From an uncultured Clostridia bacterium (GTDB lineage Bacteria > Bacillota > Clostridia > Christensenellales > UBA1242), in the NCBI GenBank assembly GCA_944381185.1, contig CALWKE010000002.1:217731-281730 (forward strand): a stretch of 64,000 nucleotides of DNA, read 5' to 3'. The stretch's first letter is position 1; each line of letters starts with the position of its first letter. Shown in pieces: positions 6,243 to 56,206 of this stretch. The position numbers were made by a program, and so were the translations under genes. The notes beneath the pieces were generated by a model that made no database searches, was not told where the DNA came from, and worked only from the letters and a program-made list of their open reading frames with translations.

Positions 6243-6825
6243 ATAAAATACCATCTTCCGTATCAATTAATTTTATATCATAAAGTTCTTTATGATTTTT
6301 ACACATGTCTATAAAATCATTTAGTCTTTTTATTATAGTTTTAAATCGCTTGGTTGGTGCAATTTGTTCATTTGTTGTATATCCACGAAAAAGAACATTG
6401 TCAACAACCAATGTGCTATTTGGTTTTAGCAAATAAATTAGATTTTCAAGCAGCAATGAGTATTGAGCTTTTGGACCATCAAGAAAAATAAAGTCAAAGT
6501 AATCTTTATATTTATTATCTGCGACCATTTCGGCTATTTTTACATGGCAGTCACCAAACAAAATTTTAACACGCTTATTTACTTTAAATTTTTTAAAATT
6601 GCTTTTTGCAAGTTTAACATAGTTTTTGTTATGTTCAATAGTAACAAGTTTTGCTGATGAAGATTTAAGCATTATTATTCCACTATAACCAATGGCAGTC
6701 CCAATTTCTAAAATACATTTGGGATTATTTTTCTTGATTAAATTTTCTAGAATACTGTGGCTTTTTGTTCTAACAATTGGCACTGCATATTGTTTTGCCA
6801 AAGTTAAAATATCATCATAATTCAT
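6220..6825 (-). CDS. Class I SAM-dependent O-methyltransferase (YrrM/TrmR-like)
   Basis: 201 aa. ILEIGTAIGYSGI SAM-binding motif and FDFIFLDGPK. It sits immediately upstream of a U32 gene, as in the B. subtilis yrrM-yrrN-yrrO cluster. Confidence 0.8.
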   Translation of the reverse strand: MNYDDILTLAKQYAVPIVRTKSHSILENLIKKNNPKCILEIGTAIGYSGIIMLKSSSAKLVTIEHNKNYVKLAKSNFKKFKVNKRVKILFGDCHVKIAEMVADNKYKDYFDFIFLDGPKAQYSLLLENLIYLLKPNSTLVVDNVLFRGYTTNEQIAPTKRFKTIIKRLNDFIDMCKNHKELYDIKLIDTEDGILYAKKISK

Positions 6826-6828
6826 ACT

Positions 6829-9958: not shown

Positions 9959-10588
9959 TTAATTTTGATATGTTTGTTCTTGTGCTTGCATTTCTTTTAT
10001 TTCTTCTTGTGAACATTCATTTTGTTGGTTAAGGCAAATATTGTCATTGTTTTGAATTAAAATATTATTATTAAAAGAATTTTCGCAGTTTTCAGTATTA
10101 TTTGTTGATATGTCATCAGTTGTATTTTCTTTTGATGATTCATCAATAATAGTTTTTGCTTCATCGTCAACATTTTCAATATTTTCATCAAGGTTATTAA
10201 TATTTTGTATTTGAATATTGTCTTGCTTTATGTCTTCAGATTTAAAATTATCAAACTCAACATTTTTATTTAATGATGTATCATCATTTTTAGTTTCAGT
10301 ATTGTCAGCATCTACACTATCAGGTTTTAATTCATCTAAACTTGTTTCTGTTGATGCTTCATTTGAGGTTATGTTGTTGTCATTTGTTGTAGTAGTCATT
10401 TTATTAGTTGGCGGAACAATTATGCCTAAAATAACCAGAATACCACAAAGAGTTGTTATTAAATCATTAAACAAACTTTCGTTAACTGAAAATCCAAATT
10501 GATTGCCAAGAAGTTTAATTAAAAGAAATATTGCACTTGATAAACTAACCCAAAAGTTATATGTTTTTATTCTGTCTTTGAGTTTCAT
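9959..10588 (-). CDS. Holin-like protein (phi-LC3/LL-H type two-TM N-terminus) with a long acidic Asn/Asp/Glu/Thr-rich tail
   Basis: The N-terminal 62 aa carry two TM helices (FWVSLSSAIFLLIKLLG and LITTLCGILVILGIIVPPTNK) in the pattern of class II Firmicute phage holins. The remaining roughly 145 aa are low complexity. RBS AGAGGGA. Confidence 0.55.
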   Translation of the reverse strand: MKLKDRIKTYNFWVSLSSAIFLLIKLLGNQFGFSVNESLFNDLITTLCGILVILGIIVPPTNKMTTTTNDNNITSNEASTETSLDELKPDSVDADNTETKNDDTSLNKNVEFDNFKSEDIKQDNIQIQNINNLDENIENVDDEAKTIIDESSKENTTDDISTNNTENCENSFNNNILIQNNDNICLNQQNECSQEEIKEMQAQEQTYQN

Positions 10589-10671
10589 ATTTCCCTCTAT
10601 TAAATAAAATTTTGTTAATTTTATATAGTTTTGATATGTTTTTTATATAAAAAATATATTTTTTTGCGTTT

Positions 10672-10923
10672 TTAATTCGTTTCATTAATCACCGACATGT
10701 TATCATCAAAGCAAACACAAAGTAAGTTATTAGTAATTTTTGAAATATAATTATAAGGATAGTTTTGAATTAAATTTGTTAGTTTTAAGGTGTTTGAAAT
10801 TGTAATTATATTTTTTGATATTGAATTATTAAAGATATAAAAAATCATTTCATTTTCTTTGTTTGCAAAAAGAGAAACATTAGTTCCATTAGATATTTTA
10901 TAGTTTCGGTTTGAAAAAATCAT
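10672..10923 (-). CDS. Hypothetical phage-cluster protein
   Basis: 83-aa ORF whose start overlaps the stop of the upstream gene by 4 nt (operon coupling). Confidence 0.4.
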   Translation of the reverse strand: MIFSNRNYKISNGTNVSLFANKENEMIFYIFNNSISKNIITISNTLKLTNLIQNYPYNYISKITNNLLCVCFDDNMSVINETN

Positions 10924-12914
10924 ATTGATATTTTGATAGCTAAATTTGCTATTACTCCTTCATTATTAGAGCCCAGTAAATCATACTTATTTACAACTAT
11001 TTCATATTGGTCAGTATTAACTGAAACATTTTCAATAAGCATAGAAGTTTCTTTTAAATTATAACCCACAATTGGTTCATCTTTATTATCCATAAAAATT
11101 AAAAGTGTATCTTTTAAAAATTCAAATCCTAAAATTTTAGTTTTATCAATCTCACTAGGAAATCCATTTGAAAATTCTGTTGGTGTGACATATCCAACAA
11201 GATTATAAATTTTATACGTAGAGTTATTATATTTTTGAATTAGGTATATTAAGTTGGTTGAAATATAATCATCTTCTTCACTTCCAAGAATTGATAAATT
11301 ATATTGATAAATCTGTGGATAAAAGTATATCCAGAGATATGGTTCGGTGGTTTTTTCAACAATAATTGCCCTGTTTTTTGTATATATTTCTTTTGTATTT
11401 TTTGTTAATGTTAACGCATAGTTGGTGAAAACATCATACAGAGTTTTATCACTATAGTGGTATACAATTCTGCATGCAACTGAATGTTCACCTTCACGAA
11501 GATATATCATCTGTCCATCAGAAAAATTATTTTTATACATTGCTAAAATATATGAAAATAAATATTCAGAAACAAGATAAGAATCATAAATAAATTTATT
11601 ATTTTCTTGGTCATAAGTGAAGTAAAGGGTGTAACCATAATGCTCTGGTTCAAGTATGAGTCCTAGCATGAATACCCCATTCTTTCCAAGTGTTATATCT
11701 GCATTAAAAATTTTATCAAGACTGTCAAATTTTTCAAAATTTGTTAAATCTAGTTCAGTAAGAACGAGTTCATTATTTGTAATTTTATATGAATATATAT
11801 AGGGTTCAGTTTTAGTGATAACAAAAACATTGTCTTCAAAACTTATTATTTTAAATATATTTTGAATTGTTATGTTACCTGTTTTGATTTGAGTTATTTG
11901 ATATTCGTTGTTTATATAACCATAAATAGTATCTTCAATAACAAAAAATATTTTATCACCATCTTTAGATAAAAACCTAGGAGTTGTGCTGTCAAAAATA
12001 TTATGAAATGGAAGTGTAATTTTATCTCCAAAATCGTTTGCATATTTGCCCGCATAAACATTAGTTTCTTCAAGATTAGTTGATAAATTTTTTATTGATG
12101 AATATGAATTTACATTTTCGCCTAAATCAACAACATAATGTGTTTTTGGAGTATAAGTTTGAGTTGTTGTGGTTAGTGTTTTATATTCTTGCAAGTTGAC
12201 CCTAGCAAAAGGCGAATTTCCAACTAAAAAAACAAGTTCATTGATTTCACCACTGCCTAAATCTGCAGAAAAATTTAAGTTAAGTCCGTCTGATTCAGAA
12301 ATTGTTAGTGAGGTTAAGTATTTTTCAGATGAAGTTGGTTCTTCTCTAAAAATTCGTTTATTAGGAGTTGTATTATTCCCTTTTACCACATAAATATTAT
12401 CATCAAGTCCAAGTCCTAACAAAAAGTTAATAAATTTGTTGTTACCACTAGTAAGCATAATTGAACTATCTTCTATAATAGTAAGATAAATATAAATTGA
12501 AAAAACAATTGCTTCCCCATTCTCTTTTTTTATTCCGTTTGGAAGTTCTTCGCTTATAAGTGAAAAGTAATTATAAATAATTGGATTATCTTCATTATTC
12601 GAAAGTCCTATTTCTTTAATGTATTTATCATTTAAATTTGCATCATCAATAATCACCGATTGTTTTATAAAAAGATTTCCATTTGATATGTCATTTTGTA
12701 AAATTTCTGTTTCAAGTTCATAGGTTTTCAAATAACTCGTTAAATGGTATTCAGTTTGATTTGTTGATGGCTCGCCAGATCCAACACTTGCATATTTATT
12801 AAAAGCTTCAAGATTTTTAAGTTTATCAAACACACTATTTAACATTGTGTTAAAAAATAAATAGTTTTTGTTTTTATATTTAAGCTCAATTTTGTTATGA
12901 AATAAAAACTTCAT
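10920..12914 (-). CDS. Large phage structural protein of unknown type (candidate tail or receptor-binding protein)
   Basis: 664 aa at the distal end of the structural operon. No recognisable motif. Confidence 0.5.
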   Translation of the reverse strand: MKFLFHNKIELKYKNKNYLFFNTMLNSVFDKLKNLEAFNKYASVGSGEPSTNQTEYHLTSYLKTYELETEILQNDISNGNLFIKQSVIIDDANLNDKYIKEIGLSNNEDNPIIYNYFSLISEELPNGIKKENGEAIVFSIYIYLTIIEDSSIMLTSGNNKFINFLLGLGLDDNIYVVKGNNTTPNKRIFREEPTSSEKYLTSLTISESDGLNLNFSADLGSGEINELVFLVGNSPFARVNLQEYKTLTTTTQTYTPKTHYVVDLGENVNSYSSIKNLSTNLEETNVYAGKYANDFGDKITLPFHNIFDSTTPRFLSKDGDKIFFVIEDTIYGYINNEYQITQIKTGNITIQNIFKIISFEDNVFVITKTEPYIYSYKITNNELVLTELDLTNFEKFDSLDKIFNADITLGKNGVFMLGLILEPEHYGYTLYFTYDQENNKFIYDSYLVSEYLFSYILAMYKNNFSDGQMIYLREGEHSVACRIVYHYSDKTLYDVFTNYALTLTKNTKEIYTKNRAIIVEKTTEPYLWIYFYPQIYQYNLSILGSEEDDYISTNLIYLIQKYNNSTYKIYNLVGYVTPTEFSNGFPSEIDKTKILGFEFLKDTLLIFMDNKDEPIVGYNLKETSMLIENVSVNTDQYEIVVNKYDLLGSNNEGVIANLAIKISI

Positions 12915-12916
12915 AT

Positions 12917-13939
12917 TTAATCTCCATAAGTTGAAATTGTAAGGCTTATTTTTGCATTGATGTTTTCTTGCTTATTAAGTGTTTCATTTTGAGATTCAAT
13001 TAAAAAGTTTGCATCATTTTCATCAGTTGTAATAACATAAAATTTTTGATTAAAATTATTAAAATAAGCATAACAAAACTTTAGTTTATAGTTATTATTA
13101 TATAATAATTTTTCATCAGATAAAATTAGATTATTATTTAAAATAACAAAATAACATTTTTGATTTTTAATAAAAGTTATAAGTGTGGAAGAATTATCTG
13201 TGCATGCAGATACATCTTGCACACCTGAAGAAACAAATATTTCATTTTTGTCATTGAAATTTGAATAAAATAAATTGCCTGCTGTGTCAACTCTAAAAAG
13301 TAATAATACTTTGTTTTGTGAATTATAAGCGAAAGAAAATGATTTTGCTGATTTAAATAAATTAAAGTCTTCAGAGTTGAATGACCCAGTGGTTTTATCC
13401 ACTTCTTTGTAAAATAATTGATAGTTATTTAGATATGCCAGCAAAATGTTATTTTCAGTTTCAATGGCTTGATATTTAATATTATTTTTTGTATCAATTA
13501 ATCCCCAAACTGAAAGTGAAACTAAACTCAATGTTACTAATTTATTTTCGGTTGGAGTTATTTCAATGTATATGTCGCTTTGTGTTGAAATTAAAGGATT
13601 ATAAGCCTTCATAATTGAAATTTGATTAAATCCATTTGATAAAGTTTTTGTTGATTTATAAATTGAAATATTATCAACTATAAGTGAAAATGTAACTTTT
13701 TGTGATGTTGTTAAATTGACATCTATTAGCATTTGAAAATATATGCTTGAATTTTTTGTAACTTCAATTTGTGCTATTTGAACTTTTTGTGTCGTTAAAA
13801 TTGAATAGTTAAGAAGATTTTTTGTAAATGTTACATAATTGCTTGTTTCAGTTTTTTCGTTTGAAGTTTCACTTATTTGCTCAATTTCATCTTCAAGTTC
13901 ATTTGTTTTGTTAAGAAGTGTTTTAATTTTATCAATCAT
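12917..13939 (-). CDS. Phage structural protein, unknown function
   Basis: 340 aa, 2-nt gaps to both neighbours, N-terminal coiled-coil-like acidic segment. Confidence 0.45.
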   Translation of the reverse strand: MIDKIKTLLNKTNELEDEIEQISETSNEKTETSNYVTFTKNLLNYSILTTQKVQIAQIEVTKNSSIYFQMLIDVNLTTSQKVTFSLIVDNISIYKSTKTLSNGFNQISIMKAYNPLISTQSDIYIEITPTENKLVTLSLVSLSVWGLIDTKNNIKYQAIETENNILLAYLNNYQLFYKEVDKTTGSFNSEDFNLFKSAKSFSFAYNSQNKVLLLFRVDTAGNLFYSNFNDKNEIFVSSGVQDVSACTDNSSTLITFIKNQKCYFVILNNNLILSDEKLLYNNNYKLKFCYAYFNNFNQKFYVITTDENDANFLIESQNETLNKQENINAKISLTISTYGD

Positions 13940-13941
13940 AA

Positions 13942-15339
13942 TTAATCCTCAATAGTTGAAGTTAAAATATATATTGAATTAATCATAAAACTTTCATCAC
14001 TTTCAATAGTTAATTCAAAAACATGACCAGTAAATCCTAAATTTTCAAAACTTTTACTTCCGTTAATTGACAAATAATATTCATCTAAATCAGATGTTAG
14101 TGTTATGTTATAATTTCCAATTCCAGAAATTTTAAATTTTTTAATAGTTTTCTTTTCATAATCATTAATTATAAATTTGTTAAATCTAATAATTTTATGT
14201 TTATCTATCAGTTTATTTTTGGCAAGTCTTAAAATTTTATATTTATTGTTATTTGAAGTAAGTGCTAGCAATGAGTAGTTATTAATGGTTTTAAGCAGAT
14301 AAATATCATTAACTTGACCAATGTTATAAATATTGCAATTCTCTTTTTCAATATTAAATTCTAGTATAACTGTTTCTAATATGTCATCTATAAGCATTTT
14401 CGTTAGCAAATAATAATTATTGTTATATGATAAAGATTTGAACTCATCGCATTTAATGAGTGTGGTAAATTCATGAAACATTTCTTTTGTATCATTTCCA
14501 TCAAAAATGTAAAGACCTGATGTTGTTAAAAATATTAAATAGTCATCAATTGTTTGAATTGTGTTTTTAATGATTTTAGAATTAATTGCACAAGAATATT
14601 GCAATCTATAAATATTTGAAACTATTGAAAATTTTGCAATACCGTATTGTTGAACAATGTAGATATAATTTTTATAAACAACAATATCAATTATTTCACC
14701 ATACATAGAGTTAATTTTAACTTTTTCATACTCATTATACATGGTTGGTAAATCTTCAATTTCAAAATTATCCGAAGCTATATAAAGATAATTTTTATCA
14801 TTATTAACCAAAAAGAAATATTGATGGTTATAGTCTAAAATTTTTGTTATTTTTGGGAGTGACAAAATAGTTAAAGGAAGTTCGTTGTTTTGTTCAAATA
14901 ACAATAAATTATCATTTGAAGAAAAAATGTAAAGTTTATTATTAAAAGTTAAAAATGTTGGCAATTTATTAAAAGTTATTTGAAGTGATTGAAAATTTTT
15001 AGTTTCAATATTTAGTTCGAATAATGAAAATGTATTATTAACAACAAAAATTCTGCTTTTGTAAGATGAAGTTTCAGAATCAAAATAGTCATAAAAATAA
15101 ATAAATATAATAGTATTAATAAAATTTTCATTATTACATTTAAAATCAATATAATCTTCCCCATTAAAAATTTTTAAGAAAAAATCTTCAAATCCAGATA
15201 GTGGTTCAATAACATTATTTTGGATTGTTAAATTTGATATTGATGAAATTTTTAATTCATTTTTAAAAATTTTATTTATATTTAACTTGTCTTTAAAGTC
15301 AATGAATGTAAAACTTTTACTTGATTGTTTCATTTGCAA
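13942..15339 (-). CDS. Phage structural protein, unknown function (candidate tail hub or adaptor)
   Basis: 465 aa, overlaps the upstream gene by 10 nt. Repetitive beta-strand-like pattern. Confidence 0.45.
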   Translation of the reverse strand: MQMKQSSKSFTFIDFKDKLNINKIFKNELKISSISNLTIQNNVIEPLSGFEDFFLKIFNGEDYIDFKCNNENFINTIIFIYFYDYFDSETSSYKSRIFVVNNTFSLFELNIETKNFQSLQITFNKLPTFLTFNNKLYIFSSNDNLLLFEQNNELPLTILSLPKITKILDYNHQYFFLVNNDKNYLYIASDNFEIEDLPTMYNEYEKVKINSMYGEIIDIVVYKNYIYIVQQYGIAKFSIVSNIYRLQYSCAINSKIIKNTIQTIDDYLIFLTTSGLYIFDGNDTKEMFHEFTTLIKCDEFKSLSYNNNYYLLTKMLIDDILETVILEFNIEKENCNIYNIGQVNDIYLLKTINNYSLLALTSNNNKYKILRLAKNKLIDKHKIIRFNKFIINDYEKKTIKKFKISGIGNYNITLTSDLDEYYLSINGSKSFENLGFTGHVFELTIESDESFMINSIYILTSTIED

Positions 15340-15902
15340 AATGTAGACTTAAATCGTCTTTCCCTTTTATTTCTAACCTTAAAAATTTCATTTAAAAATT
15401 TAGTTTTCCAAAATTCACTTTCATTAAAAAGATTTTTACTTGCTAAAAATTCACTAACAACTCCATAACATAGTATCTTTTTTAAAGTATCAGAAATTTT
15501 CAATTCAGAATCTAAAGTTGAAATTTCTGGTGGAAGATATTTATAATTGACAAAATATGTTTTATTTGATTCAGACAACAAAATATGGTCAGAATATATT
15601 TTAAAATTTACGACATTATTAAATTCGTCATAAATATAAAGAATTTTAAGTGGAGCAAAATCAAATTTATAATAATATATATTTTTATTTGAATCAGAAG
15701 ATATTGGTTGAGTGTGAGTTATTTCTAAATAATTTTCACAGAGTGATGAAAATGTGTAGTTAAAATAATTAATTAATCTTAAAATATCATTTCTAATTTG
15801 TTCATTTTCAATATCAGAAATATCATTTGTGTTTTGAAGTGCAACAATTATATCGTCACGATTTAATAACATTGCACACTTTATTAAAAAGTTTTTTAAC
15901 AT
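15330..15902 (-). CDS. Putative head-tail adaptor or head-completion protein
   Basis: 190 aa, second gene after the capsid gene. Assignment rests on position only. Confidence 0.35.
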   Translation of the reverse strand: MLKNFLIKCAMLLNRDDIIVALQNTNDISDIENEQIRNDILRLINYFNYTFSSLCENYLEITHTQPISSDSNKNIYYYKFDFAPLKILYIYDEFNNVVNFKIYSDHILLSESNKTYFVNYKYLPPEISTLDSELKISDTLKKILCYGVVSEFLASKNLFNESEFWKTKFLNEIFKVRNKRERRFKSTFCK

Positions 15903-15904
15903 TG

Positions 15905-16288
15905 TTAGCCCTCGATTATTTTATTTATATCACCTTTTGAAATATTTGAAGTTCGTTTTGAATAATTAATCAGTTCAACAGATTTCAGGGTAACATTATC
16001 TTTTAATTTTTTTATATTTTTATTTGTTAAATTATAATTATATTTATCAATATTTTTAAATAATAAATTGCTTTGTTCGATTCGTGTTGATTGCAAATAT
16101 TTTATCAAATTCAATGATAATGAATTGGTTTTTAAGCAAATTTGATTGTTTTTTGCAGTATTTATAACAATAAAACATTTTTCTTTATTATTAAATAATA
16201 ACTTATAATTTACATCTATTTTGGTTATTAAATTATAATAATTAAACATATCTTTATATGGAACGCAATATTTAAGTATATTTTTCAT
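15905..16288 (-). CDS. Hypothetical phage head-associated protein
   Basis: 127-aa ORF directly after the capsid gene and its stem-loop. Confidence 0.35.
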   Translation of the reverse strand: MKNILKYCVPYKDMFNYYNLITKIDVNYKLLFNNKEKCFIVINTAKNNQICLKTNSLSLNLIKYLQSTRIEQSNLLFKNIDKYNYNLTNKNIKKLKDNVTLKSVELINYSKRTSNISKGDINKIIEG

Positions 16289-16302
16289 ATATTATCCTTA
16301 AA

Positions 16303-16330
16303 TTAAATCCACACTTATGTGTGGATTTAA
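16303..16330 (-). other. Perfect 12-bp stem-loop immediately after the capsid gene stop
   Basis: Plus strand reads ttaaatccacac-ttat-gtgtggatttaa. On the minus strand it is not followed by a clean U-tract. Confidence 0.6.
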
Positions 16331-17518
16331 TTATGATTCACTAATTCCAGTAATTTTGGCTTGTCCGCTTGGCTTATTGCAAATAATGTCAGCATACTTA
16401 ACAAGTGTAGCTTGGTATGTTGGTTTTCCAAGAGTTTGTTTAATTACCCTGCCATCTTCACCTTCAAGCCAGCTCCAATCACAAAGTTGATGTAAATTAA
16501 ATTCACTTGTGTTAAGCAAAAACATTGTATTTTCAGGTGCAAATCTGTCAGAAACAACAGGAATGCCATTATAAGAAATGGCTTTAAAACCACCTTCAAG
16601 ATTCATTACATCAACATTGCTTCTGTAAGATGAAAGGTATGATTGATAATTTCTTTTTACTCCAGCCGAGCAAACTATAAAGTCTACTTTACTGTCAGCA
16701 GTTTCTTCAAGTTCATCAATTGCTTTTTGCATAACAACTTCAGAAATATTTGTTGTGCTAGTAGATTTGATATCTTTAATATAAGGAACCATCCAAGAAT
16801 AAGAACTTCTGTCAAGTCCATAAAGTGTTCCTGATGATTTAAAAATAGCACCAAGTCCAGTAATTTCATTGTTGTATGAACCTTGAACACAAAGGCTATA
16901 ACCAGTTTTAAAGGCACTAGCACTAAATGACGCTGTTTCAAAAGAAACAATTTTATTTGTTCTATCAATTGATTTAATTCTCAATGATTTTCCATTTGAT
17001 GCTTGTGTTCCATCTTCATCTTCAATAATATCAACGACCATGCCTTCCATTAAATTTTTAACACTATCAACTGTAACAGTTGTTGTTGTGTTTTCTGTTA
17101 TAGAAGCAAGTTTTCCACTTCCGTCGCCATAAAGCATTCTACCAAAATTAAATGCACTGGCCTTAATAAGACCATCCATTTCGGCATTAAGTAAGTTGAC
17201 AAAAGCACCAGCAGAACTTTCAGATGCTCGAATTGCTTTGTCAGAAATTTCAATTCTTCCATAAAGGTTTTTTAAACTTAAAACAAATTGAGCATAATTG
17301 TTGCCCGCAGAAGATGGCAAATTACCATCTTCAGTTCCTGCACCAATACCACCATTTAATCCGTAAGGTGCAAGTTTTCTTATTTCTTTTCCCCAAACAT
17401 CAGCAGTTGTTTGATTAATTTTTGCAAGAAGTGGATTGATAGAAGTGTTAAGTTGATTTGAAAGCACGCCAAGATAAACTTCTTTTAATGCACTATCTGC
17501 AGTAGTTAAAGTTACCAT
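16331..17518 (-). CDS. Major capsid protein (probable HK97 fold)
   Basis: 395 aa, directly downstream of the portal and scaffold genes. Gly/Ser/Ala-rich composition unlike the rest of the window. Size and position fit an MCP. Confidence 0.8.
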   Translation of the reverse strand: MVTLTTADSALKEVYLGVLSNQLNTSINPLLAKINQTTADVWGKEIRKLAPYGLNGGIGAGTEDGNLPSSAGNNYAQFVLSLKNLYGRIEISDKAIRASESSAGAFVNLLNAEMDGLIKASAFNFGRMLYGDGSGKLASITENTTTTVTVDSVKNLMEGMVVDIIEDEDGTQASNGKSLRIKSIDRTNKIVSFETASFSASAFKTGYSLCVQGSYNNEITGLGAIFKSSGTLYGLDRSSYSWMVPYIKDIKSTSTTNISEVVMQKAIDELEETADSKVDFIVCSAGVKRNYQSYLSSYRSNVDVMNLEGGFKAISYNGIPVVSDRFAPENTMFLLNTSEFNLHQLCDWSWLEGEDGRVIKQTLGKPTYQATLVKYADIICNKPSGQAKITGISES

Positions 17519-17526
17519 AAATTCTC

Positions 17527-18132
17527 CTATTTAAGCATTTTTGAAAATATTTCCCCAGCCTCTTTTACTGTTCTTGGCTTATTTTCATTTGGCGAAAAAT
17601 AAATATTTGTTGAATTGCCAGCAATAACTTTTGGGCTTTGTGAAATATTATTTAAATTAGACAAATAGTCAGAAATTATTTTTTCTTTTATTTCATTATT
17701 TGAAAAAATGTATTTGTCTAAATATTCTGGATTGTTTAAAAGATTTGCAGATTTATTAGATGCAGACTTGGCGATTTTTAATGCAATTTGGTATCTATTT
17801 GGCAGATTATTAATTTCATTATCATTAATCAAAATCTCCTCGATATCCTTTTTATATTCATCCATACCAGACTTATTTAAAAACTCGTCAAGTGTTTCAT
17901 TATTTTGAAAAAACGCACTTTCTCCATATTCTTTCTGAAATTCTGCTAATTTTTGGCTTTTTCTCGTAAATTCTGCTTCTAAATTGTTATATGCGTCTAA
18001 CAAACTTTTTACATCTTTAAACTTTCCGTAAATAGAGCCGTCTTGATTTTCTGAATCAAAATTATTTTGAATTTGTTCAGTTTCAAGAACAGGTTGTTCT
18101 ATAATTTTATCTTCCATATATACCTCATTCAT
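17527..18132 (-). CDS. Scaffolding protein
   Basis: 201 aa, acidic and helical, lying between the portal and capsid genes. Confidence 0.6.
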   Translation of the reverse strand: MNEVYMEDKIIEQPVLETEQIQNNFDSENQDGSIYGKFKDVKSLLDAYNNLEAEFTRKSQKLAEFQKEYGESAFFQNNETLDEFLNKSGMDEYKKDIEEILINDNEINNLPNRYQIALKIAKSASNKSANLLNNPEYLDKYIFSNNEIKEKIISDYLSNLNNISQSPKVIAGNSTNIYFSPNENKPRTVKEAGEIFSKMLK

Positions 18133-19984
18133 TTATAAAATTTTTATGTTCTTTGATATGATTTAATAACTTTAATTTAAATTCGCTATCAATATTTTCA
18201 TTGTTAGATATAATATATTTTGTGTGTTCATCTATATGAATTTTGTGATTATCAATTTCAAGTGGACTTTCAAGTTTGATTAATTTTAAATTTTCGTTAT
18301 TTGCACGTTTTGAATGCAAGTCGTCAATGTCTTGAGTTATTTCCCAATTATCTAGTCCTAGCATTTTTAGTAATCTATTTTTATTGCTTGAACTTATTTT
18401 TCCTGATGAATCAAATAATATTCCCTTATCATAAAGTGAAAGGATTAAATCTTTTTTATTATAACTATTTTCTTCTAATTCATTTTTAGAATCTAAAACA
18501 ACATCGTCAGCAGTTATATCACTGTTTTTCCAATAGAACACTTCAATTGAACCATTTTTATCGGTAAATTTATCTAATCTTGTCTGCGTTGCGAATTGTT
18601 TGTATAATCTTAAAATATATTCACCGATTTTCTTTATAGACTCTCTAATGTATTCTGCTGTCAGTGATAGTCTGGTTTCATCTTGTTCAATTAAAAGATT
18701 TAAGGCTGAACCACTATTAATTCCAGTTGGAACATTGGTTGTTGTTGTAACATCGCTAACACAACAAAGATTATTGAGTTCACTTAAAAGCATGGTTTCT
18801 TCATTTTCAAGTTCAGAAGGAATGCTTCCTGCATCTAAAAATTTTGGTGGTGTTGAACCATTTCTATATACTAAAATTTTTCCGGGAGCTAAACCTTCAT
18901 CTTCAAGATTGTCAATATCAACTGAACCATCTTCAACACTCAAAACACCACTTGCAAGTCTTTCAATAAATTCATGTTTTTTATTTTTTATTGCGTTATA
19001 ACTTCGTTGAATTGGGATTGACCTTTCTATGACACTGATACCCCAAAATGATGAAATTTGTTTTGTTGAAACTTGTTTAATAAAAGGATATGTTAATTCA
19101 TTATTTTTTCCGATTTTATATGGCAAATCACCATCGTATAGTAATTTATTTTTACAGATAATAGTTAGTTTTCCATTTGTATTTCTGTTATTTGGTTTTT
19201 CGTATCTTTCAATTACTAAAACGTGATTATGTTTCGTATTATGAGAAATTTTTGTGATGTTGCTTCTGCCAGAAATTCCAGATAAAAAACTAGAGTTATT
19301 TAATTCACAAATATCAATATCTTCACCATCAAGATTTAATCCCCACGATTTATTAATATTTTCAACAGGAACGGCCCTTGCTTCAATTATTGATTCGCAA
19401 TCTTCTATTTCAATTGCTCCATTTGAATCAGGATATATTTCAAATGGTGAACAAACAGAAACTTGAGCATCTCCATTTTTAATTAAGTTTCCGTCGATTT
19501 TTCCAATGACATTTCCAAGAGAATCATTCCATGAAACTTTATAAAAACTCGTTCCTGTAATTTCACTCCAAGCATTAGCTGTAGATATTAATGATTTTAA
19601 AGAGTTTTTTTCGATAAAACTTTGAAGAATAGAGTTTGCTAAATTTGCAGAAAATAAATCATTTTCTGAATTACTTGCGGGTTTAACTGTTAAATTAGGT
19701 TTTATTTTATTCAATTTAGCTAGTCTGGTTTCAATTATTGGTGCAATATGGTTATAAACTTCTCTATTTTCCCAATAATAATGTTTTTCAATGTCAGTAA
19801 GTTCTCCAGAATTAGAAATGTAGGTGTATTGATTACCCACATAAAAATTCATATTTAATTCCCATGCAAGTTCATATGGTCTTCTTTCTTGTTGCCTTCG
19901 TTTGAAATCTTGTGTTATCGAATCAACAATAATTTTATCCTCAATTTCTGAATAGAAGAATTTTTCTTTATTTTTCTGTTTCAT
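18125..19984 (-). CDS. Portal protein
   Basis: 619 aa, between terminase and scaffold. N-terminal RRQQERRPYELAWELNMNFYVGNQY resembles portal N-termini. Confidence 0.8.
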   Translation of the reverse strand: MKQKNKEKFFYSEIEDKIIVDSITQDFKRRQQERRPYELAWELNMNFYVGNQYTYISNSGELTDIEKHYYWENREVYNHIAPIIETRLAKLNKIKPNLTVKPASNSENDLFSANLANSILQSFIEKNSLKSLISTANAWSEITGTSFYKVSWNDSLGNVIGKIDGNLIKNGDAQVSVCSPFEIYPDSNGAIEIEDCESIIEARAVPVENINKSWGLNLDGEDIDICELNNSSFLSGISGRSNITKISHNTKHNHVLVIERYEKPNNRNTNGKLTIICKNKLLYDGDLPYKIGKNNELTYPFIKQVSTKQISSFWGISVIERSIPIQRSYNAIKNKKHEFIERLASGVLSVEDGSVDIDNLEDEGLAPGKILVYRNGSTPPKFLDAGSIPSELENEETMLLSELNNLCCVSDVTTTTNVPTGINSGSALNLLIEQDETRLSLTAEYIRESIKKIGEYILRLYKQFATQTRLDKFTDKNGSIEVFYWKNSDITADDVVLDSKNELEENSYNKKDLILSLYDKGILFDSSGKISSSNKNRLLKMLGLDNWEITQDIDDLHSKRANNENLKLIKLESPLEIDNHKIHIDEHTKYIISNNENIDSEFKLKLLNHIKEHKNFINE

Positions 19985-20147
19985 ACTTATCTTTTATCCT
20001 TTTCATTGAATTAAATAAATTTTTAAAACATGTTTCACATAGATATGAATCACCTTTAAAACTATTTGTTTCTAAACGATATTTTGCTTTTTTATTGCAC
20101 ATTATAGTATCGCATTTAGTAATAAAAATTGGTGTACTAATTTTCAT
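19968..20147 (-). CDS. Small (59 aa) Cys4 zinc-ribbon-like protein, not in the ORF track
   Basis: My translation is MKISTPIFITKCDTIMCNKKAKYRLETNSFKGDSYLCETCFKNLFNSMKRIKDKYETEK. GGAG lies 7 nt upstream of ATG 20147. Cys spacing is C-x4-C-x19-C-x2-C. The ORF overlaps the portal start by 17 nt. Confidence 0.45.
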   Translation of the reverse strand: MKISTPIFITKCDTIMCNKKAKYRLETNSFKGDSYLCETCFKNLFNSMKRIKDKYETEK

Positions 20148-20577
20148 TTGATATCTCCGATATTAGTTTATTTTTTAAATTAATCAATTCTTCATTAGAC
20201 ATGTTTTCTATATCATTAATATCTATCTCCTTCCTAAAAATTTCAAATAGAATTTTAATAGCAAGCATATCAGGCGGAATATAATGCGTGGTAATTTTCT
20301 TTTTAACGAGAGTAAGGTTTTCATTGGTTTGCTTAAAGTTTTCTGGTTTTCCATTTGATACTTCAATGATATCACTAGATTTATAAATATCAGTATTACC
20401 CCTGTCAATTTTATCAAAAAAACTTATATTTTCGCATTTTTGATTATCTTTTTTAGAATTATCTGCTAATTTTTGCGTTTTTTCATATTCTAATAATTCT
20501 TCATTATAGAAGAATCCAGAAGCTTTTTTTATAAGAATTTTAATTAAATCGTTTTCATTAAATTTGCTTTTGCTCAT
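20137..20577 (-). CDS. Hypothetical phage protein
   Basis: 146 aa, start overlaps the TerL stop. No motif recognised. Confidence 0.4.
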   Translation of the reverse strand: MSKSKFNENDLIKILIKKASGFFYNEELLEYEKTQKLADNSKKDNQKCENISFFDKIDRGNTDIYKSSDIIEVSNGKPENFKQTNENLTLVKKKITTHYIPPDMLAIKILFEIFRKEIDINDIENMSNEELINLKNKLISEISNEN

Positions 20578-22007
20578 AACCTCTTTTTTAAAAGTTTAAT
20601 AAACTTTTCTTTATTTTTTAATAAATCAGATTTTTTTGTTGTTTCAAATTTATTGTTAATGCTCATAATGTAATAACGAAGTTCGTCCATTGAATGGTCA
20701 TCATGTTTTGTAGGTGAATCGTTTCCACCCCACCTATAACTTTTAATTTCTCTAATCATATTTGTGCAATTAGAAAAGATAAATAATTTAGATGTTCCAT
20801 TTATATTTTTTAAATATGATTTTACTTTTGATATTCCCGATAACACATCTTTGTTTACATTAGAATTACATAAAATTCCATTTTCATAAAAAAGTTCGAC
20901 TACACTTTTTTGTGATGATAATGTTCTTTGATTTGCTGCACTGTCAATAATGGTTTCAATCATACCATTTGAAGCTGTTTTCCATTTTAAATTGTTTGAT
21001 ATTTCTTTAATTTTGTTAGAATGGTATTCTATTGTTTTATTTGAAGCATAATGCTCTGCAACAACATAAATATTTCCGTCATAATCTTTTGCATACCAAT
21101 GGCATGAAAGTGGGTTTGATAATCCCGGGTCGATTGAAATGTTATCTTGCCAATCAGATGGGATATTGAAGGGTTCAATAACATTAACACTTGGGTCAAA
21201 TTCTGTGTATATTAATCCGCAATCAATTGATGAAAACCTTCCATATTTTCGGCTCTCTATTTCATCTTTAGGCAAAGTGTTTGAAAGTCTTTCAAGTTCC
21301 TTTTTATTTAAGAAAGGATTATCTTCCCACGACATAAATTCGTAGAATACTTCTGGGTCATTTGAATTATTTAGATAAATTTCATTATAGATAAATGTCA
21401 ATCCCTTAAGAGGTGTCATTGTTCCAAAAATTTCACCACATTTGTCAAGAACTCTCATTTTGCATTCGTTATATATATCTTCAGGAGGTTCTTCATCAAA
21501 CCAAACAAAATCTAAACTTGCACCTTGAAATTTTTCTCGTCCTTCTTCGCAAGATTTAAACCAAATTTTACTAGTCAAACCAAATATATTTTTTAAAACT
21601 ATACATTCAATAACACCCTGTTCAGGTGCAGATTTTTTACCTTCAGTCATAATGATGTCTTGAATATAATTCTTGGGTAAATATTTTAAGATTTTCGCCT
21701 GTGCCACTTCTTTTTGAACTCTTGTTGATAGACTAACAACCCAACATTCTGTTTGTTTTTTATTTTGTTTGAAAGGATGAATTCCTAGTGATATCCAAAT
21801 AGTTTCAACAGCACCACATTCTGTTTTTCCTGTTCGATTACCGCCAAAGACCCACCTATTTCGTTTCGTTGATTTATGAAATTGGATTTGTTTTTCGTGG
21901 ACTATTTTTCCAGTATTATATTTCAATAAAGGTAGCAAATTTCTTTTTTCAATTTCTTTTAAAAGTTTAATTAATTTAATAATATTGTTTTTATTCATAA
22001 TATTCAA
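20574..22007 (-). CDS. terL: Terminase large subunit
   Basis: 477 aa. Walker A-like FGGNRTGKTECG, Walker B LDFVWFDEEP, and a C-terminal RNaseH-like nuclease region (IDPGLSNP..DSAANQ..HDDHSMDELRY). Confidence 0.9.
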   Translation of the reverse strand: MNIMNKNNIIKLIKLLKEIEKRNLLPLLKYNTGKIVHEKQIQFHKSTKRNRWVFGGNRTGKTECGAVETIWISLGIHPFKQNKKQTECWVVSLSTRVQKEVAQAKILKYLPKNYIQDIIMTEGKKSAPEQGVIECIVLKNIFGLTSKIWFKSCEEGREKFQGASLDFVWFDEEPPEDIYNECKMRVLDKCGEIFGTMTPLKGLTFIYNEIYLNNSNDPEVFYEFMSWEDNPFLNKKELERLSNTLPKDEIESRKYGRFSSIDCGLIYTEFDPSVNVIEPFNIPSDWQDNISIDPGLSNPLSCHWYAKDYDGNIYVVAEHYASNKTIEYHSNKIKEISNNLKWKTASNGMIETIIDSAANQRTLSSQKSVVELFYENGILCNSNVNKDVLSGISKVKSYLKNINGTSKLFIFSNCTNMIREIKSYRWGGNDSPTKHDDHSMDELRYYIMSINNKFETTKKSDLLKNKEKFIKLLKKRL

Positions 22008-22081
22008 TAAAGTTATTTGAGATGCTAAAATTAGACAAAAATCGCATTTTTTATTAAAAATAATTGAAATATAATATCAAT

Positions 22082-23056
22082 ATGAAAAAAATTTTGATAT
22101 TTTTATCTATTTTAGTTTTGTTTGTAAATGTTAAATTTTGCAATAAAAATGTTTTTGCCACAGCTGAAAATGCTAAATATGCAAAGGCACTTGCAAACTG
22201 CAAATTATATTTGACAGATGATTTAACAGACTCAATTGACAATGTTAAATTTATAATTCCAGAATCATATTTTGTTTTAATTATTGGTCAAATTAATGAT
22301 AATTGCTATTATGTTCAATATGATAAGTTTGTTGGTTATGTTGAATCATCAACAATTACATTAGCAACTTTTATTCCTGAAAATAAAACACTTACAGACA
22401 TTACATGTGAAATTAAATCGTCATCAGGAACGCAAATTTGGTCAAAACCTTCAGTTGCTAGTGGTGAAGTTCTTTCAACAATATCAGCAGGCACAAAAAA
22501 TATTAATTATATTGCATCAATTTATGGTGAAATACCATCAGGTGGTGAAACTAATCTTTGGTATTTTGTTTCATATACTCCGATAACAAATCCAACTGAT
22601 GTTTATGAAGGATATATTTATAGCGAAAATACAATAAATTTATCTAACATACCAATTAATAATGAAAGCAATCCTGAATTAAATAATTCTTCAAATTCAA
22701 ACAATAATAATAAAATAATTATTTCATCGTCATTTCAAACAATTATCATAGCAATAATAGCAATTCCTATTATTTTATTAATTTCAATTATTTTGTATAA
22801 ATTGATAAAAAAATTGCAAGAAAATACAAATAAAAGAAATTTTCAAAATGAAAAATATGAAAAATTAAATTTAAATGCAATTAATTATTATAATCATGAA
22901 GATGAAAGAAAGATAAACTTAAAATCACAAATTGATAATCTTTCACGCAAATCATTTATTCGTAAGAAGCGTCACACATTAACAAATGTTTCACCTATCA
23001 GTCAAAAAAATTATCCTGAATTTCCGAATTATGATTCTGAAGATGATTTATTATGA
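22082..23056 (+). CDS. Membrane protein: signal peptide, two SH3b-like domains, one TM helix, then a Lys/Asn-rich cytoplasmic tail
   Basis: The track start at 22064 is a TTG. ATG 22082 gives MKKILIFLSILVLFVNV. SH3b-like pattern: CKLYLTDDL..FVLIIGQINDNCYYVQYDKFVGYVESSTI plus a second copy ending YEGYIYSENT. TM helix IIIAIIAIPIILLISIILY. Confidence 0.65.
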   Translation: MKKILIFLSILVLFVNVKFCNKNVFATAENAKYAKALANCKLYLTDDLTDSIDNVKFIIPESYFVLIIGQINDNCYYVQYDKFVGYVESSTITLATFIPENKTLTDITCEIKSSSGTQIWSKPSVASGEVLSTISAGTKNINYIASIYGEIPSGGETNLWYFVSYTPITNPTDVYEGYIYSENTINLSNIPINNESNPELNNSSNSNNNNKIIISSSFQTIIIAIIAIPIILLISIILYKLIKKLQENTNKRNFQNEKYEKLNLNAINYYNHEDERKINLKSQIDNLSRKSFIRKKRHTLTNVSPISQKNYPEFPNYDSEDDLL

Positions 23057-23725
23057 AACAGATTTTTGCACTGCTTCATTTTCGGTAACATATGTTTTTG
23101 AATGATTATTATTTTTATATTGATAGTTTGCATTTTTAAAGTAGTCACTTACAATTTTTATAAATTTTTCTTTTAACCAAGTTTCTTGCTTTATTTGGCT
23201 TTCTATAAATCGAAGTGACCAATTTTTTGAAATTGCTCTGCTGTGAATCAAATTTATTATTCTGTCAATTTTTCGATATATTGTTCTAGCAGAAATATTA
23301 AATTCTTTTGAAAGATCTTCAGTTGACCAATTATAAACAAATCTTTTTTCAATAAAATTTAAATCTTCATCTGAAAGGTTTTTAACAAGTTCTTTTGTCA
23401 TAATATAGATGTTTAAAAGAGAGTTTTTTCTCTGTGACAAATCAATCAACGATTCAACTTGATTAATAAGTGAATTACTTCCATTAAAAACATCTGACGA
23501 AAATGAAACAGTTGATGCTTGAAGCTCGATAATTTTATCTACGGTTTTTATAATTTCAGGTATAGTGTTATAAGAAGCAAGAAGTGTTTTAATCCAAAAT
23601 TTAAATTTTGTGTCATCATCCATTTCAGATAAAAAATTTTTTATTAGTTGTTTTTTTGTTTGTTTTGAAATTTTATCTAACTTAAAATTTTTTATGTTAG
23701 ATTTGATTTTAGCCTTTGTATCCAT
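23051..23725 (-). CDS. Sigma-70 region-4-like HTH transcription regulator (candidate Xpf/ArpU/RinA-type late activator)
   Basis: 224 aa. LSDEDLNFIEKRFVYNWSTEDLSKEFNISARTIYRKIDRIINLI resembles a sigma region 4.2 HTH. The gene is co-oriented with the phage operon and divergent from the giant ORF. Confidence 0.55.
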   Translation of the reverse strand: MDTKAKIKSNIKNFKLDKISKQTKKQLIKNFLSEMDDDTKFKFWIKTLLASYNTIPEIIKTVDKIIELQASTVSFSSDVFNGSNSLINQVESLIDLSQRKNSLLNIYIMTKELVKNLSDEDLNFIEKRFVYNWSTEDLSKEFNISARTIYRKIDRIINLIHSRAISKNWSLRFIESQIKQETWLKEKFIKIVSDYFKNANYQYKNNNHSKTYVTENEAVQKSVS

Positions 23726-54172: not shown

Positions 54173-56206
54173 ATGAAGAAATATTGCATTAAATTAACTA
54201 AAATATTCACTTTAGCGTTATTTGCGTTCCTTTTATCATTCAGTTTGATAAATAATTTTACTATAAAATTTGATAAAACTTTAACGAAATCAAACGCATC
54301 ATCAATATCTGCAGATTTTAGCATTTTTATCAGCAATGCCACCTACTCTACTTTTTATAACAATAAAATTTATTTTATTGATAGTTATGATAATTTGCTA
54401 AAAATTTATGACACTAACAATAAAAAATTTTTAAATGAATATCTTGATTTAACAGAATATGAAGAAATTGTTGACGCCACCTATTTAGATGGAAATATAT
54501 TTTTATATTCATCACTAAATCAATTAGTAATAATTAATTTAAATGATTTGTCAATAAAAACTATATCTAATGAATTATTAACAAATAGCTTAAGCAAAAT
54601 ATCTGTTACAAAAATAAATGATGAAGATTTGCAAAAATTTGCTATAACCCTTTCCCCTGATATAATAAATGAACAAGTTTCACCAGTTGTTATGTTGATT
54701 GATGAAACATCTTTAGAGTTATCTGAAATATGTAAAATTAATTTAGTTTCAAATGATTTTGATGATATTAAAACAAGTCTTATAAAAATATTTGTTTTAA
54801 ATTCTCAAACCGTTGATAATGAAATTAATATTATGTTTTTTTACGGAAGTAATGTAGCCTTTGCATCACTTTCAATTAACTCATTAAAAAACAATGAAAC
54901 AATTTCATCGGTAACATTAATTTCGGCGCAACTTGATAACACCAATCATAACATAAATATAAAAAATATCAATTTGATGCAAATATCAAATAATTCATAT
55001 TATCTTATAACCTATTCTGACAACTCAAACAATGCTTATTCAAGGCTTTACAGATACAAACTTACAAATAGCATAGAAACAAGTTTTGAGTATTTATCTC
55101 AAATAGAAACCTCAAACACTAAATATGTTTTAACTTCAAATGAATATGTAATTTTTCCAAATGATAACCAATCAATAACCTATGTAAAAATAGAATATGA
55201 TGATGAAAATGAAATTATTTCTAATATTAACACAACAATAACAAACCCAATTGTTACACCTGAATATTTTGAAGAAGAAAATTTTGTTTATATGCAAACA
55301 AATAAAAACACAAAACTACTTTCTTCTCCTTGGGATTTCGACGAAATAATTATTATAAATGAAAATATTGATATAATAAACATTGGAAAAGGCAAAATTG
55401 AAAGCGAAAATTCAGTCATTGAAGACTTTTTGTATTGTTTATACACATTTGATGGCGTCAATTATAAAGGTTACATTAAAACCGAAGATTTGACTGAAAA
55501 ACAAATAATACCTGTTGAAAATTATCCTTATCCGGTGTTCAAAACAGTTCCAAACTCAAATCTATACTCCCTGCCAACAAAAGTTTTGGGCGACATGATA
55601 ACAAATGATTTATCATCATCTGTAATTATGCAAATTGAAGCAAATTCAAGAGTTGAAGTTTTAGATGTTATTTGTGGCTACACTTCTCTTGATTCAACAA
55701 TGATAAAAGTAAAAGTAAATAATAACCAAATTGGATATATTGAAACAAATAACATAATTCACCCAAGTGATAAAGTTGATTATGTCATAACAAATTCAGC
55801 AATCAAACAAGATAAAACAAATGTTTATATAAATGCTAATTCAAATAGTGCAATTATTTATACATTAGATAAAGGTTATAGAATAAGAATAAATGCAGTT
55901 CGTGACACAAAAACTGGATACACAAGTATAACTTTTAATGACGAATACGGAAATGAATTTTCTGGTTATATTATCACTGATGTAATTTCAGCAGATAGTT
56001 GGACAACATTGCAAATAGTTGGTTGCATTTTAATAGCAATAAATATTGGCCTTTTAATATTAATTCTGTTATTCAAAAAAGAAAAAATCGGAGGACGAGG
56101 TCAAAAATATACTGCTAGTGAAACCACAAATTACGGCAAAACAAATATTACAAATTCTAATATAAAATCAAATGAATCAAACAACAAAAAAGAAGATGAA
56201 AAGTAA
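54173..56206 (+). CDS. Membrane protein: signal peptide, beta-rich ectodomain, three SH3b-like repeats, TM helix, then a Lys/Asn/Glu-rich tail
   Basis: 677 aa. N-terminal signal IFTLALFAFLLSFSLI. SH3b-like repeats end in YKGYIKTEDL, QIGYIETNNI and FSGYIITDVI. TM helix LQIVGCILIAINIGLLILILLF. Confidence 0.65.
   Translation: MKKYCIKLTKIFTLALFAFLLSFSLINNFTIKFDKTLTKSNASSISADFSIFISNATYSTFYNNKIYFIDSYDNLLKIYDTNNKKFLNEYLDLTEYEEIVDATYLDGNIFLYSSLNQLVIINLNDLSIKTISNELLTNSLSKISVTKINDEDLQKFAITLSPDIINEQVSPVVMLIDETSLELSEICKINLVSNDFDDIKTSLIKIFVLNSQTVDNEINIMFFYGSNVAFASLSINSLKNNETISSVTLISAQLDNTNHNINIKNINLMQISNNSYYLITYSDNSNNAYSRLYRYKLTNSIETSFEYLSQIETSNTKYVLTSNEYVIFPNDNQSITYVKIEYDDENEIISNINTTITNPIVTPEYFEEENFVYMQTNKNTKLLSSPWDFDEIIIINENIDIINIGKGKIESENSVIEDFLYCLYTFDGVNYKGYIKTEDLTEKQIIPVENYPYPVFKTVPNSNLYSLPTKVLGDMITNDLSSSVIMQIEANSRVEVLDVICGYTSLDSTMIKVKVNNNQIGYIETNNIIHPSDKVDYVITNSAIKQDKTNVYINANSNSAIIYTLDKGYRIRINAVRDTKTGYTSITFNDEYGNEFSGYIITDVISADSWTTLQIVGCILIAINIGLLILILLFKKEKIGGRGQKYTASETTNYGKTNITNSNIKSNESNNKKEDEK

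Follow-up and report, generated by a model that had tools for sequence, protein, structure and literature searches.

A 64,000-nucleotide stretch of DNA from an uncultured Clostridia bacterium (Christensenellales, UBA1242; assembly GCA_944381185.1, contig CALWKE010000002.1, positions 217,731 to 281,730; hereafter the window) harbors a compact cluster of phage morphogenesis genes between positions 9,959 and 23,725. This element is probably a domesticated viriform resembling a gene transfer agent (GTA), descended from a short-tailed phage with a P22-type portal and now fixed in the chromosomes of a large clade of uncultured Clostridia from the gut. Three of the traits by which GTAs and viriforms are recognized were found: head-tail and packaging genes reside in the chromosome, no genes for autonomy accompany them, and the locus is inherited vertically under purifying selection. 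A preliminary description of this DNA, made from the sequence, had wavered between a decaying prophage remnant and a host-controlled, particle-producing element and leaned toward the latter, which the comparisons reported here support. Few GTAs are known, mostly from Alphaproteobacteria, and the first podovirus-like one, which was also the first known from a commensal of the gut, was described as recently as 2026 and from one genus (Borodovich et al., Nat Commun 2026). If the present reading is true, the locus extends podovirus-type GTAs to a second, far broader clade of abundant uncultured gut Clostridia.

A Fixed and Vertically Inherited Locus

Thirteen tightly packed open reading frames (ORFs) on the minus strand, from window position 22007 down to 9959, form one operon in which the gene of the large terminase (TerL) is first and a holin gene last (Table 1). 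Most junctions overlap or are separated by 2-8 nt. Coordinates, lengths, strand and the organization as a single, tightly coupled operon are as the preliminary description had given them. The window has about 27% GC.

Relatives were sought in a collection with one genome per species, in which 196 stretches match the major capsid protein (MCP); the locus counts given throughout refer to the best 80 of these, and protein families were built from these loci by iterative hidden Markov models. All 80 loci come from metagenome-assembled genomes (MAGs) of uncultured gut or rumen Clostridia, with labels that include Clostridia, Christensenellaceae, Christensenella sp., Ca. Limihabitans and "CAG:917", and their MCPs are 58-81% identical to the window copy. 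More than 6,400 family proteins were found, and at E <= 1e-3 the MCP superfamily amounts to 3043 cluster representatives (clustering at 50% identity).

The gene order recurs from locus to locus: regulator, SH3 protein (on the reverse strand), TerL, a small terminase (TerS)-like protein, a Cys4 mini-protein, portal, scaffold and MCP, followed by the 127-aa and 190-aa proteins, the tail nozzle, a variable distal block, the holin and a 349-aa membrane protein. In many loci RNase J, an O-methyltransferase and a U32 peptidase come next. In dozens of species-level genomes the cluster is found at one and the same chromosomal site, next to RNase J, and this synteny persists where the identity of RNase J to the window copy has dropped to 43-54%. 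In a set of 19 genomes, MCP, TerL and portal each give a matrix of pairwise identities that follows the RNase J matrix (Pearson r 0.90, 0.87 and 0.92, respectively; Mantel p <= 0.0005 for each), with mean pairwise identities of 68.5% for MCP, 63% for TerL, 52.5% for portal and 54.5% for RNase J. The GC content of the cluster likewise tracks that of the flanking host genes over a range of 26-58% (r = 0.98).

Selection was measured against a contig of the same species that shares 98.9% nucleotide identity across 21 kb. From TerL to the holin, 98 synonymous and 37 non-synonymous differences separate the two copies (dN/dS ~0.09); for the 664-, 340- and 465-aa genes, which the preliminary description had left unassigned, dN/dS lies at 0.035-0.07 (664-aa gene 0.035, 340-aa gene 0.07). 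Values against a more distant relative (L081) range from 0.08 to 0.33. Nearly all copies of the core genes, counted over 44-79 loci, are full length. Fixed position, co-divergence with the host, GC tracking and purifying selection together establish that this is a vertically inherited element kept by its host. Thus the three comparisons that the preliminary description had proposed, of chromosomal position in related genomes, of selection and of the integrity of orthologs, all came out on the side of domestication, as did the search for an integrase and att sites.

Genes for an autonomous life cycle were not found. Profile searches of the cluster and of the whole 64-kb window recovered no integrase, recombinase, repressor or replication gene, and neither contains an ORF of tape-measure size, in agreement with what had been noted from the sequence. 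The cluster has no ORF for a contractile tail (sheath, tube, tape measure or baseplate). The preliminary description had allowed for an adjacent integrase and att sites; none occur in the window. No exact direct repeats flank the cluster, and an att-flanked insertion was rejected after the search for it returned only imperfect AT-rich repeats of the kind expected by chance. In the 10-kb flanks of dozens of related loci there is no integrase or primase; these flanks hold housekeeping genes only, including RNase J, O-methyltransferase, U32 peptidase and aminoacyl-tRNA synthetases. In distant loci the flanking genes encode a polysaccharide deacetylase, a single-stranded DNA-binding protein and an SH3 protein, and again no integrase.

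Packaging and Head Module

Profile searches bear out the identities that had been proposed for TerL, portal, MCP and the holin-like protein. TerL matches Terminase_6N (1e-9) and Terminase_6C (6e-6) in Pfam and phrog_2 (2e-28) in PHROG, and its translation displays a Walker A (GGNRTGKT) and a Walker B (DFVWFDEE) motif. The portal belongs to the Pfam family P22_portal (2e-10; phrog_156, 2e-26). The MCP scores far over the cutoff of the NCBIfam model NF033394, capsid_maj_Podo (4.6e-85), and matches phrog_14242 (3.9e-59); no N4-gp56 model is among its matches at E <= 0.01, and a profile search against the PDB gave nothing significant. The 201-aa scaffold candidate had no match in Pfam, PHROG or NCBIfam scans, and the 127-aa protein none in Pfam, PHROG or PDB sequences.

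The preliminary description had seen no recognizable small terminase, and here it was wrong. In the family of the 146-aa protein, 32 of 40 members match phrog_309 (terminase small subunit; best 1.6e-8) and 10 match phrog_23444, also a terminase small subunit. The window copy has no match on its own because of a low-complexity insertion that the family alignment shows to be specific to its lineage. The family match is restricted to positions 195-246 of a 319-position profile, and with a median length of 102 aa the family is too short to accommodate the N-terminal DNA-binding domain that is usual in small terminases. The 146-aa protein is therefore predicted to be a small terminase core that lacks the DNA-binding domain; a sequence-profile search of the family against the PDB returned nothing significant.

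Short Tail and Release Functions

For the 465-aa protein, Pfam and PHROG gave no match and a profile search against the PDB nothing significant; only structure prediction gave its identity. The top Foldseek matches of the AlphaFold2 model (pLDDT 85, pTM 0.83) are Pa223 (3.5e-16) and P22 gp10 (8eap_D, 3.2e-14), and further matches are to VP1, GP4, Pan3, SU10 and T7 gp12, all of them podovirus nozzle or hub proteins aligned over the full length. One homolog of the 465-aa protein matches phrog_3287, a virion structural protein (1.5e-9). According to the model, the 465-aa protein has the fold of a tail nozzle of the podovirus type, similar to P22 gp10. This fold and the portal family support the P22-like, short-tailed gene order that had been read from the sequence. 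Of the five proteins that had been left without assignment, the 127-, 190-, 340- and 664-aa proteins still have no profile match, and the 465-aa protein can now be removed from the list.

Podoviruses encode the adaptor between portal and nozzle directly upstream of the nozzle gene. The 190-aa gene takes this place in 72 loci, and by analogy with podovirus gene order its product is a candidate for the head-to-tail adaptor. The window copy has no match in Pfam, PHROG or NCBIfam, nor does its family in PHROG or PDB sequences.

The slot of the 340- and 664-aa genes differs between lineages. Homologs of the 340-aa protein, for which no Pfam or PHROG profile match was found, are confined to about 8 close relatives; elsewhere the slot is filled by different genes, among them those of DUF7934 and coiled-coil proteins. 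The 664-aa protein has 67 homologs. Its AlphaFold2 model (pLDDT 92.7) matches only generic beta-propellers in the PDB and BFVD, on which ground a tailspike or an enzyme was rejected; profile searches of Pfam, PHROG and PDB sequences found no enzymatic domain. Because the slot varies with lineage, the 340- and 664-aa proteins would fit receptor-binding or distal parts of the tail. Gene calling splits the 664-aa gene into a pair of overlapping ORFs in two metagenome contigs (L081 at 4980-7080, 294 and 420 aa; L086 at 14369-16600, 485 and 282 aa). A frameshift, a fault in the assembly or decay restricted to the distal tail gene could each account for this.

The holin exceeds the cutoff of Pfam Phage_holin_1 (4.5e-5), matches phrog_297 (4.9e-10) and consists of an N-terminal holin domain followed by a long low-complexity tail. 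In several relatives a small protein encoded just upstream of the holin (e.g., L045 at 15903-16226) matches PHROG 2429/1625, annotated as "involved in bacteriocin production or immunity". It may be BhlA/UviB-like. The corresponding slot of the window encodes an 83-aa protein that is unrelated to it and matches nothing in Pfam or PHROG. Downstream, the genes on the left of the cluster had been taken for housekeeping genes; this holds for RNase J, but the 349-aa membrane protein travels with the cluster, following the holin in 29 loci, including some in which RNase J is not next.

Regulator and Upstream Region

The window copy of the regulator gives weak helix-turn-helix and sigma matches in Pfam and PHROG. 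Its family profile matches sigma-70 region 4 in the PDB (3hug, 7e-6; SigF, FliA). Among 36 homologs, 25 match TIGR02937, 8 the phage RinA model and 6 the model NF005385, "positive control sigma-like factor", which we take to be the Xpf-type family. The analogy with Xpf, the sigma-like factor of PBSX, that had been drawn from the sequence gains some support from the last two figures. The preliminary description had also placed the regulator upstream of the operon in the same orientation. Its sigma-like nature stands, but a 330-aa gene on the opposite strand intervenes between regulator and TerL, as it does in 47 loci, so that the regulator does not belong to the TerL transcription unit. The translation of this gene shows a signal peptide, SH3b-like domains, a transmembrane helix and a cytoplasmic tail. 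Conserved SH3 membrane proteins near the regulator could have a role in the control of the element or in recipient recognition.

About 30-45 nt upstream of TerL lies the 16-mer AAAATGCGATTTTTGT. Its core is identical in the window, L001 and L008 although dS exceeds 1 (synonymous sites are saturated), variants occur in L002 and L006, and the exact 14-nt core is found once in the window. From this conservation the 16-mer is a candidate control site of the operon. Scans for promoters and terminators were uninformative in DNA of 27% GC: promoter-like sites are rarer than in shuffled sequences, and the terminator-like sites fall inside coding regions.

Farther upstream lies a 677-aa SH3 protein, whose ortholog directly adjoins the regulator in at least 22 other loci; a profile of these upstream neighbors matches the window protein (E = 1e-85). 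In the window a 30-kb giant gene lies between it and the regulator. The giant ORF (9979 aa, window 24153-54092, plus strand) is also present in L001, L006, L008 and L083, had no Pfam match in the 6000 residues sampled, and appears to be a lineage-specific insertion.

Table 1. Features of the element and its borders in the window (positions in window coordinates).
Feature	Position	Strand	Basis
Sigma-70 region-4-like activator, candidate RinA/Xpf-like late-gene regulator, 224 aa	23051..23725	-	Family profile matches; 44 loci at same position
SH3b membrane protein, 330 aa	22064..23056	+	Translation; SH3_3 in 18/42 homologs; 47 loci
Non-coding 16-mer AAAATGCGATTTTTGT, candidate promoter/operator element	22035..22050	-	Conserved upstream of TerL
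TerL, 477 aa	20574..22007	-	Terminase_6N/6C, phrog_2, Walker A/B
Small-terminase-like core protein, 146 aa	20137..20577	-	Family matches to TerS PHROGs
Cys4 zinc-ribbon mini-protein, 59 aa	19968..20147	-	CxxxxC...CxxC in translation; homologs in same slot, 43 loci
Portal, P22 type, 619 aa	18125..19984	-	P22_portal, phrog_156; 70 loci
Scaffolding protein candidate, 201 aa	17527..18132	-	Position between portal and MCP; helical, acidic; 76 loci
MCP, podovirus-type family, 395 aa	16331..17518	-	NF033394 capsid_maj_Podo, phrog_14242
Conserved 127-aa protein, head-completion or decoration candidate	15905..16288	-	55 loci, same position
Conserved 190-aa protein, head-to-tail adaptor candidate	15330..15902	-	Position only; 72 loci
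Predicted tail nozzle/hub, 465 aa, P22 gp10-like beta-propeller fold	13942..15339	-	AlphaFold2 and Foldseek; 61 loci
Lineage-variable 340-aa protein, distal tail (plug or fiber) candidate	12917..13939	-	N-terminal coiled coil
Lineage-variable 664-aa beta-rich protein, receptor-binding or distal tail candidate	10920..12914	-	Beta-propeller model
83-aa protein	10672..10923	-	4-nt overlap with 664-aa gene; homologs in ~7 close relatives
Holin, 209 aa	9959..10588	-	Phage_holin_1, phrog_297; 25 loci
Polytopic membrane protein, 349 aa	8735..9784	-	Multiple transmembrane segments; after holin in 29 loci
SH3-containing 677-aa protein; tie to element uncertain	54173..56206	+	SH3_3; ortholog adjoins regulator in other lineages

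Relation to Known Elements

The closest published parallel is FpGTA of Faecalibacterium prausnitzii, in whose 40-nm capsids DNA of the host is packaged in lengths of about 8.5-9 kb (Borodovich et al., Nat Commun 2026; PMC12946183). FpGTA is encoded by a 10.5-kb operon that includes TerS-like protein, TerL, portal, Prp-like protein, MCP and an 8eap-like nozzle, and by a second locus of 5.5 kb, 125 kb away, with tail fiber, holin and endolysin (PMC12946183). Both elements are chromosomal clusters of about 10-14 kb in gut Clostridia that combine TerL, portal, capsid and a P22 gp10-like nozzle: the FpGTA nozzle (RCH50846) is annotated as "Tail nozzle (PDB=8eap)", and 8eap_D is among the matches of the 465-aa model. 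In both, the TerS candidate lacks a DNA-binding domain, integrase and replication genes are missing, and the element is nearly ubiquitous in the host clade. The 8eap-like nozzle is thus shared; by annotation, the N4-gp56 capsid and the FpGTA I gene set are not. The FpGTA capsid (RCH50849) is named "N4-gp56 family" by NCBI, whereas the window MCP is of the capsid_maj_Podo family; a Prp-like protease gene (RCH50850) stands where the window cluster has its scaffold gene; TerS is listed before TerL in FpGTA and follows it here; and holin and endolysin are encoded in the second FpGTA locus, whereas the main operon of the window includes the holin and an endolysin is not seen. The host orders differ as well. 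Set apart by the annotations of that paper, the window element apparently does not belong to the same family as FpGTA. It is apparently a second podovirus-type GTA-like element, of independent origin and broader distribution, and literature searches turned up no further account of an element of this sort from these bacteria.

The same study reports GTA-like packaging of ~6.3-kb fragments in Christensenellaceae (QANA01), detected in human fecal virus-like particles, with no locus identified (PMC12946183). The present cluster offers a concrete candidate locus for this packaging, which had been seen without a gene cluster. A wider claim can be put forward tentatively, with rather less confidence than the GTA-like nature of the element itself: that a podovirus was domesticated independently and anciently in a Clostridia clade of the scale of an order (labels such as Christensenellaceae, Christensenella and CAG-917) and that its descendants account for the ~6-kb packaging in Christensenellaceae.

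Other known systems share parts of the picture. Like PBSX of Bacillus subtilis, the element is a defective, non-replicating, phage-like entity in a Gram-positive chromosome with holin-based release and a sigma-like positive control factor, whose counterpart in the window is adjacent to the late operon. PBSX is nevertheless myovirus-like (sheath, tube and tape measure) and kills by means of its tail, in contrast to the podovirus nozzle predicted here, and its structural genes have no detectable sequence relationship to those of the window. RcGTA of Alphaproteobacteria is likewise a vertically inherited head-tail cluster, order- to class-wide in distribution, under purifying selection, without integration or replication genes and with lysis genes partly unlinked; its TerS also lacks a DNA-binding domain (cited in PMC12946183). 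RcGTA differs in being siphovirus-like, with a tape measure, another capsid lineage and a host of another phylum, and in its regulation by host CtrA and GafA, as opposed to an adjacent sigma-like factor.

The P22-like podophages (P22, SU10, Pa223, VP1, GP4) share with the window the order of portal, scaffold, capsid, small proteins and nozzle, a portal of the Pfam P22_portal family, and the nozzle fold of gp10, Pa223 and SU10. Unlike their modules, the window element is a fixed chromosomal locus without a tailspike or needle homolog, identified ejection proteins, or replication, lysogeny and endolysin genes. Capsid-forming phage-inducible chromosomal islands (cf-PICIs) are similar in size (10-15 kb) and in encoding their own terminase, portal and capsid. 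However, cf-PICIs possess integrase, AlpA-type regulatory and replication genes, vary from strain to strain and borrow the tails of helper phages. The window element has its own nozzle and distal tail genes and a fixed position, and no integrase, AlpA-type regulator or primase was detected.

Proposed Mechanism and Alternative Readings

A mode of action can be sketched from the gene content. The sigma-region-4-like activator would switch on the operon from TerL to the holin, and a procapsid would be built from portal, scaffold and MCP. TerL, assisted by a TerS core without a DNA-binding domain, may then package DNA by a headful mechanism with little sequence specificity, so that most of what is packaged would be DNA of the host. 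GTAs are further marked by packaging of essentially random host DNA, by a capsid capacity below the size of the encoding locus and by delivery to recipient cells; for the first of these, the TerS core is an indirect hint. The portal would be closed by the 190-aa adaptor candidate and the 465-aa nozzle along with the 340- and 664-aa proteins, all of which would form a short tail that determines the cells that are targeted. Release of the particles would fall to the holin, aided by an unlinked lytic enzyme or an autolysin of the host. Particle production, non-specific packaging and DNA delivery are all deduced here from the identities of the genes.

Several observations weigh against a domesticated GTA-like element. 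No recognizable endolysin or other muralytic enzyme was found by profile searches in the cluster or the 64-kb window, as the preliminary description had already remarked. No tail needle or plug and no ejection protein was identified, and structural matches of a specific kind are lacking for the 340- and 664-aa proteins. The relatives are without exception MAGs or contigs from metagenomes. Some more distant loci (L043, L054, L062, L069, L078, L148) lie in other genomic contexts, and four contigs (L100, L128, L134, L140) carry a different post-capsid module; these contexts and exchanged modules mean that mobility or module exchange may have occurred in the past.

Domestication does not by itself tell what the particles do, and a domesticated, host-maintained element may have been selected for something other than gene transfer: as a PBSX-like particle for killing or lysis, as a source of extracellular DNA, or as a decoy for phages or competitors. 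The pairing of a sigma-like regulator with a holin parallels PBSX and the clostridial systems for bacteriocin and toxin release, a "bacteriocin" small protein adjoins the holin at a homologous locus, and DNA transfer was left open for FpGTA itself (PMC12946183). Yet TerL, the TerS-like protein and the portal are among the most constrained genes, which suggests that DNA packaging itself is under selection. The killing particles of this kind known to us (PBSX, tailocins) act through long contractile or flexible tails, whereas the present one has a podovirus-type nozzle only; sheath, tube and tape measure are all missing. We therefore regard a selected function other than gene transfer as unlikely, though it is the alternative to be taken most seriously.

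Explanations that dispense with domestication fare worse. A functional temperate phage or a cf-PICI-like satellite, with its remaining genes outside the region examined or supplied by a helper, would account for the roughly 60 fragments of the element that are called viral in IMG/VR, for the lineage-variable distal genes and for the loci in other contexts. The hallmarks of a temperate prophage (integrase, att sites, repressor, replication module, endolysin) were not detected, however; integrase, primase and repressor are missing from the 64-kb window and from the 10-kb flanks of dozens of loci, and att repeats are not seen. The insertion site is identical across genomes in which RNase J identity falls to about 45%, the genes co-diverge with RNase J, and the GC content is fully ameliorated, all of which makes a mobile prophage or satellite very unlikely. 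Still less tenable is a functionless prophage remnant that decays and persists by chance. Most phage modules are indeed lacking, and the 664-aa gene is split in a few metagenome contigs (L081, L086), but the data contradict decay: dN/dS is ~0.09 overall and 0.03-0.07 for the unassigned tail genes, the core genes are intact in 44-79 loci, and capsid and terminase proteins are more conserved across the clade than RNase J. Fixed site, co-divergence, GC tracking and purifying selection thus exclude decay, and a domesticated GTA-like viriform remains the most probable identity of the element.

Viral Catalogs and Divergent Relatives

IMG/VR holds about 60 mostly short contigs (L085-L144) of the same element in the same order, some of them with RNase J (e.g., L130). 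Since these contigs carry the chromosomal element, virus-calling pipelines evidently file a host locus as viral. Viral databases are in this sense contaminated by a domesticated locus, which is of practical concern for virus detection.

Some relatives depart from the common layout. L100, L128, L134 and L140 retain the regulator, the SH3 protein and the head module from TerL to MCP, followed by post-capsid ORFs of ~370, 370, 900-950 and 460 aa, which suggests replacement of the tail module in some lineages. In L114, L130, L133 and L136, the TerL profile matches only ORFs of 176-308 aa, and additional ORFs of 500-730 aa occur upstream of the TerS-like gene. Either TerL could have acquired an insertion or intein, or the terminase could have been replaced.

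At lower identity, L148 (a contig of GCA_028748505.1) carries a sister element with an MCP 44% identical, in the context of PFK, BipA/TypA and DUF1508 genes. A 111-aa ORF lies upstream of its TerL, TerS-like and Cys4 genes do not follow TerL, and a DUF7934 protein comes after the nozzle. The MCP of L146 (a JGI 3300010430 contig) is 35% identical. This contig carries a small-terminase-like gene of the HTH_Tnp_1_2 type, an Acb2/Tad1-hairpin (anti-CBASS-type) gene and a P22-type portal, in the order portal, scaffold, MCP, small proteins and large nozzle (genes of 138, 179, 673 and 1028 aa after the MCP), and a peptidase_S8 gene; from this gene content it is probably a genuine free podophage relative. 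The closest capsids of cultured phages are only 26-28% identical to the window MCP.

Neighboring Genes

A SigK gene lies 5 kb from the cluster (window 4200-4889, minus strand; NCBIfam PRK05803, 3e-80). A link to sporulation through SigK was considered and rejected as unsupported, since the adjacency is found only in the closest relative (L001). Besides SigK, the rest of the window is housekeeping and encodes a U32 peptidase, an O-methyltransferase, RNase J, a Nudix hydrolase, AspRS, tRNA-Leu, CysRS and an oxidoreductase, together with a 431-aa AAA+ ATPase that matches phage clamp-loader PHROGs.

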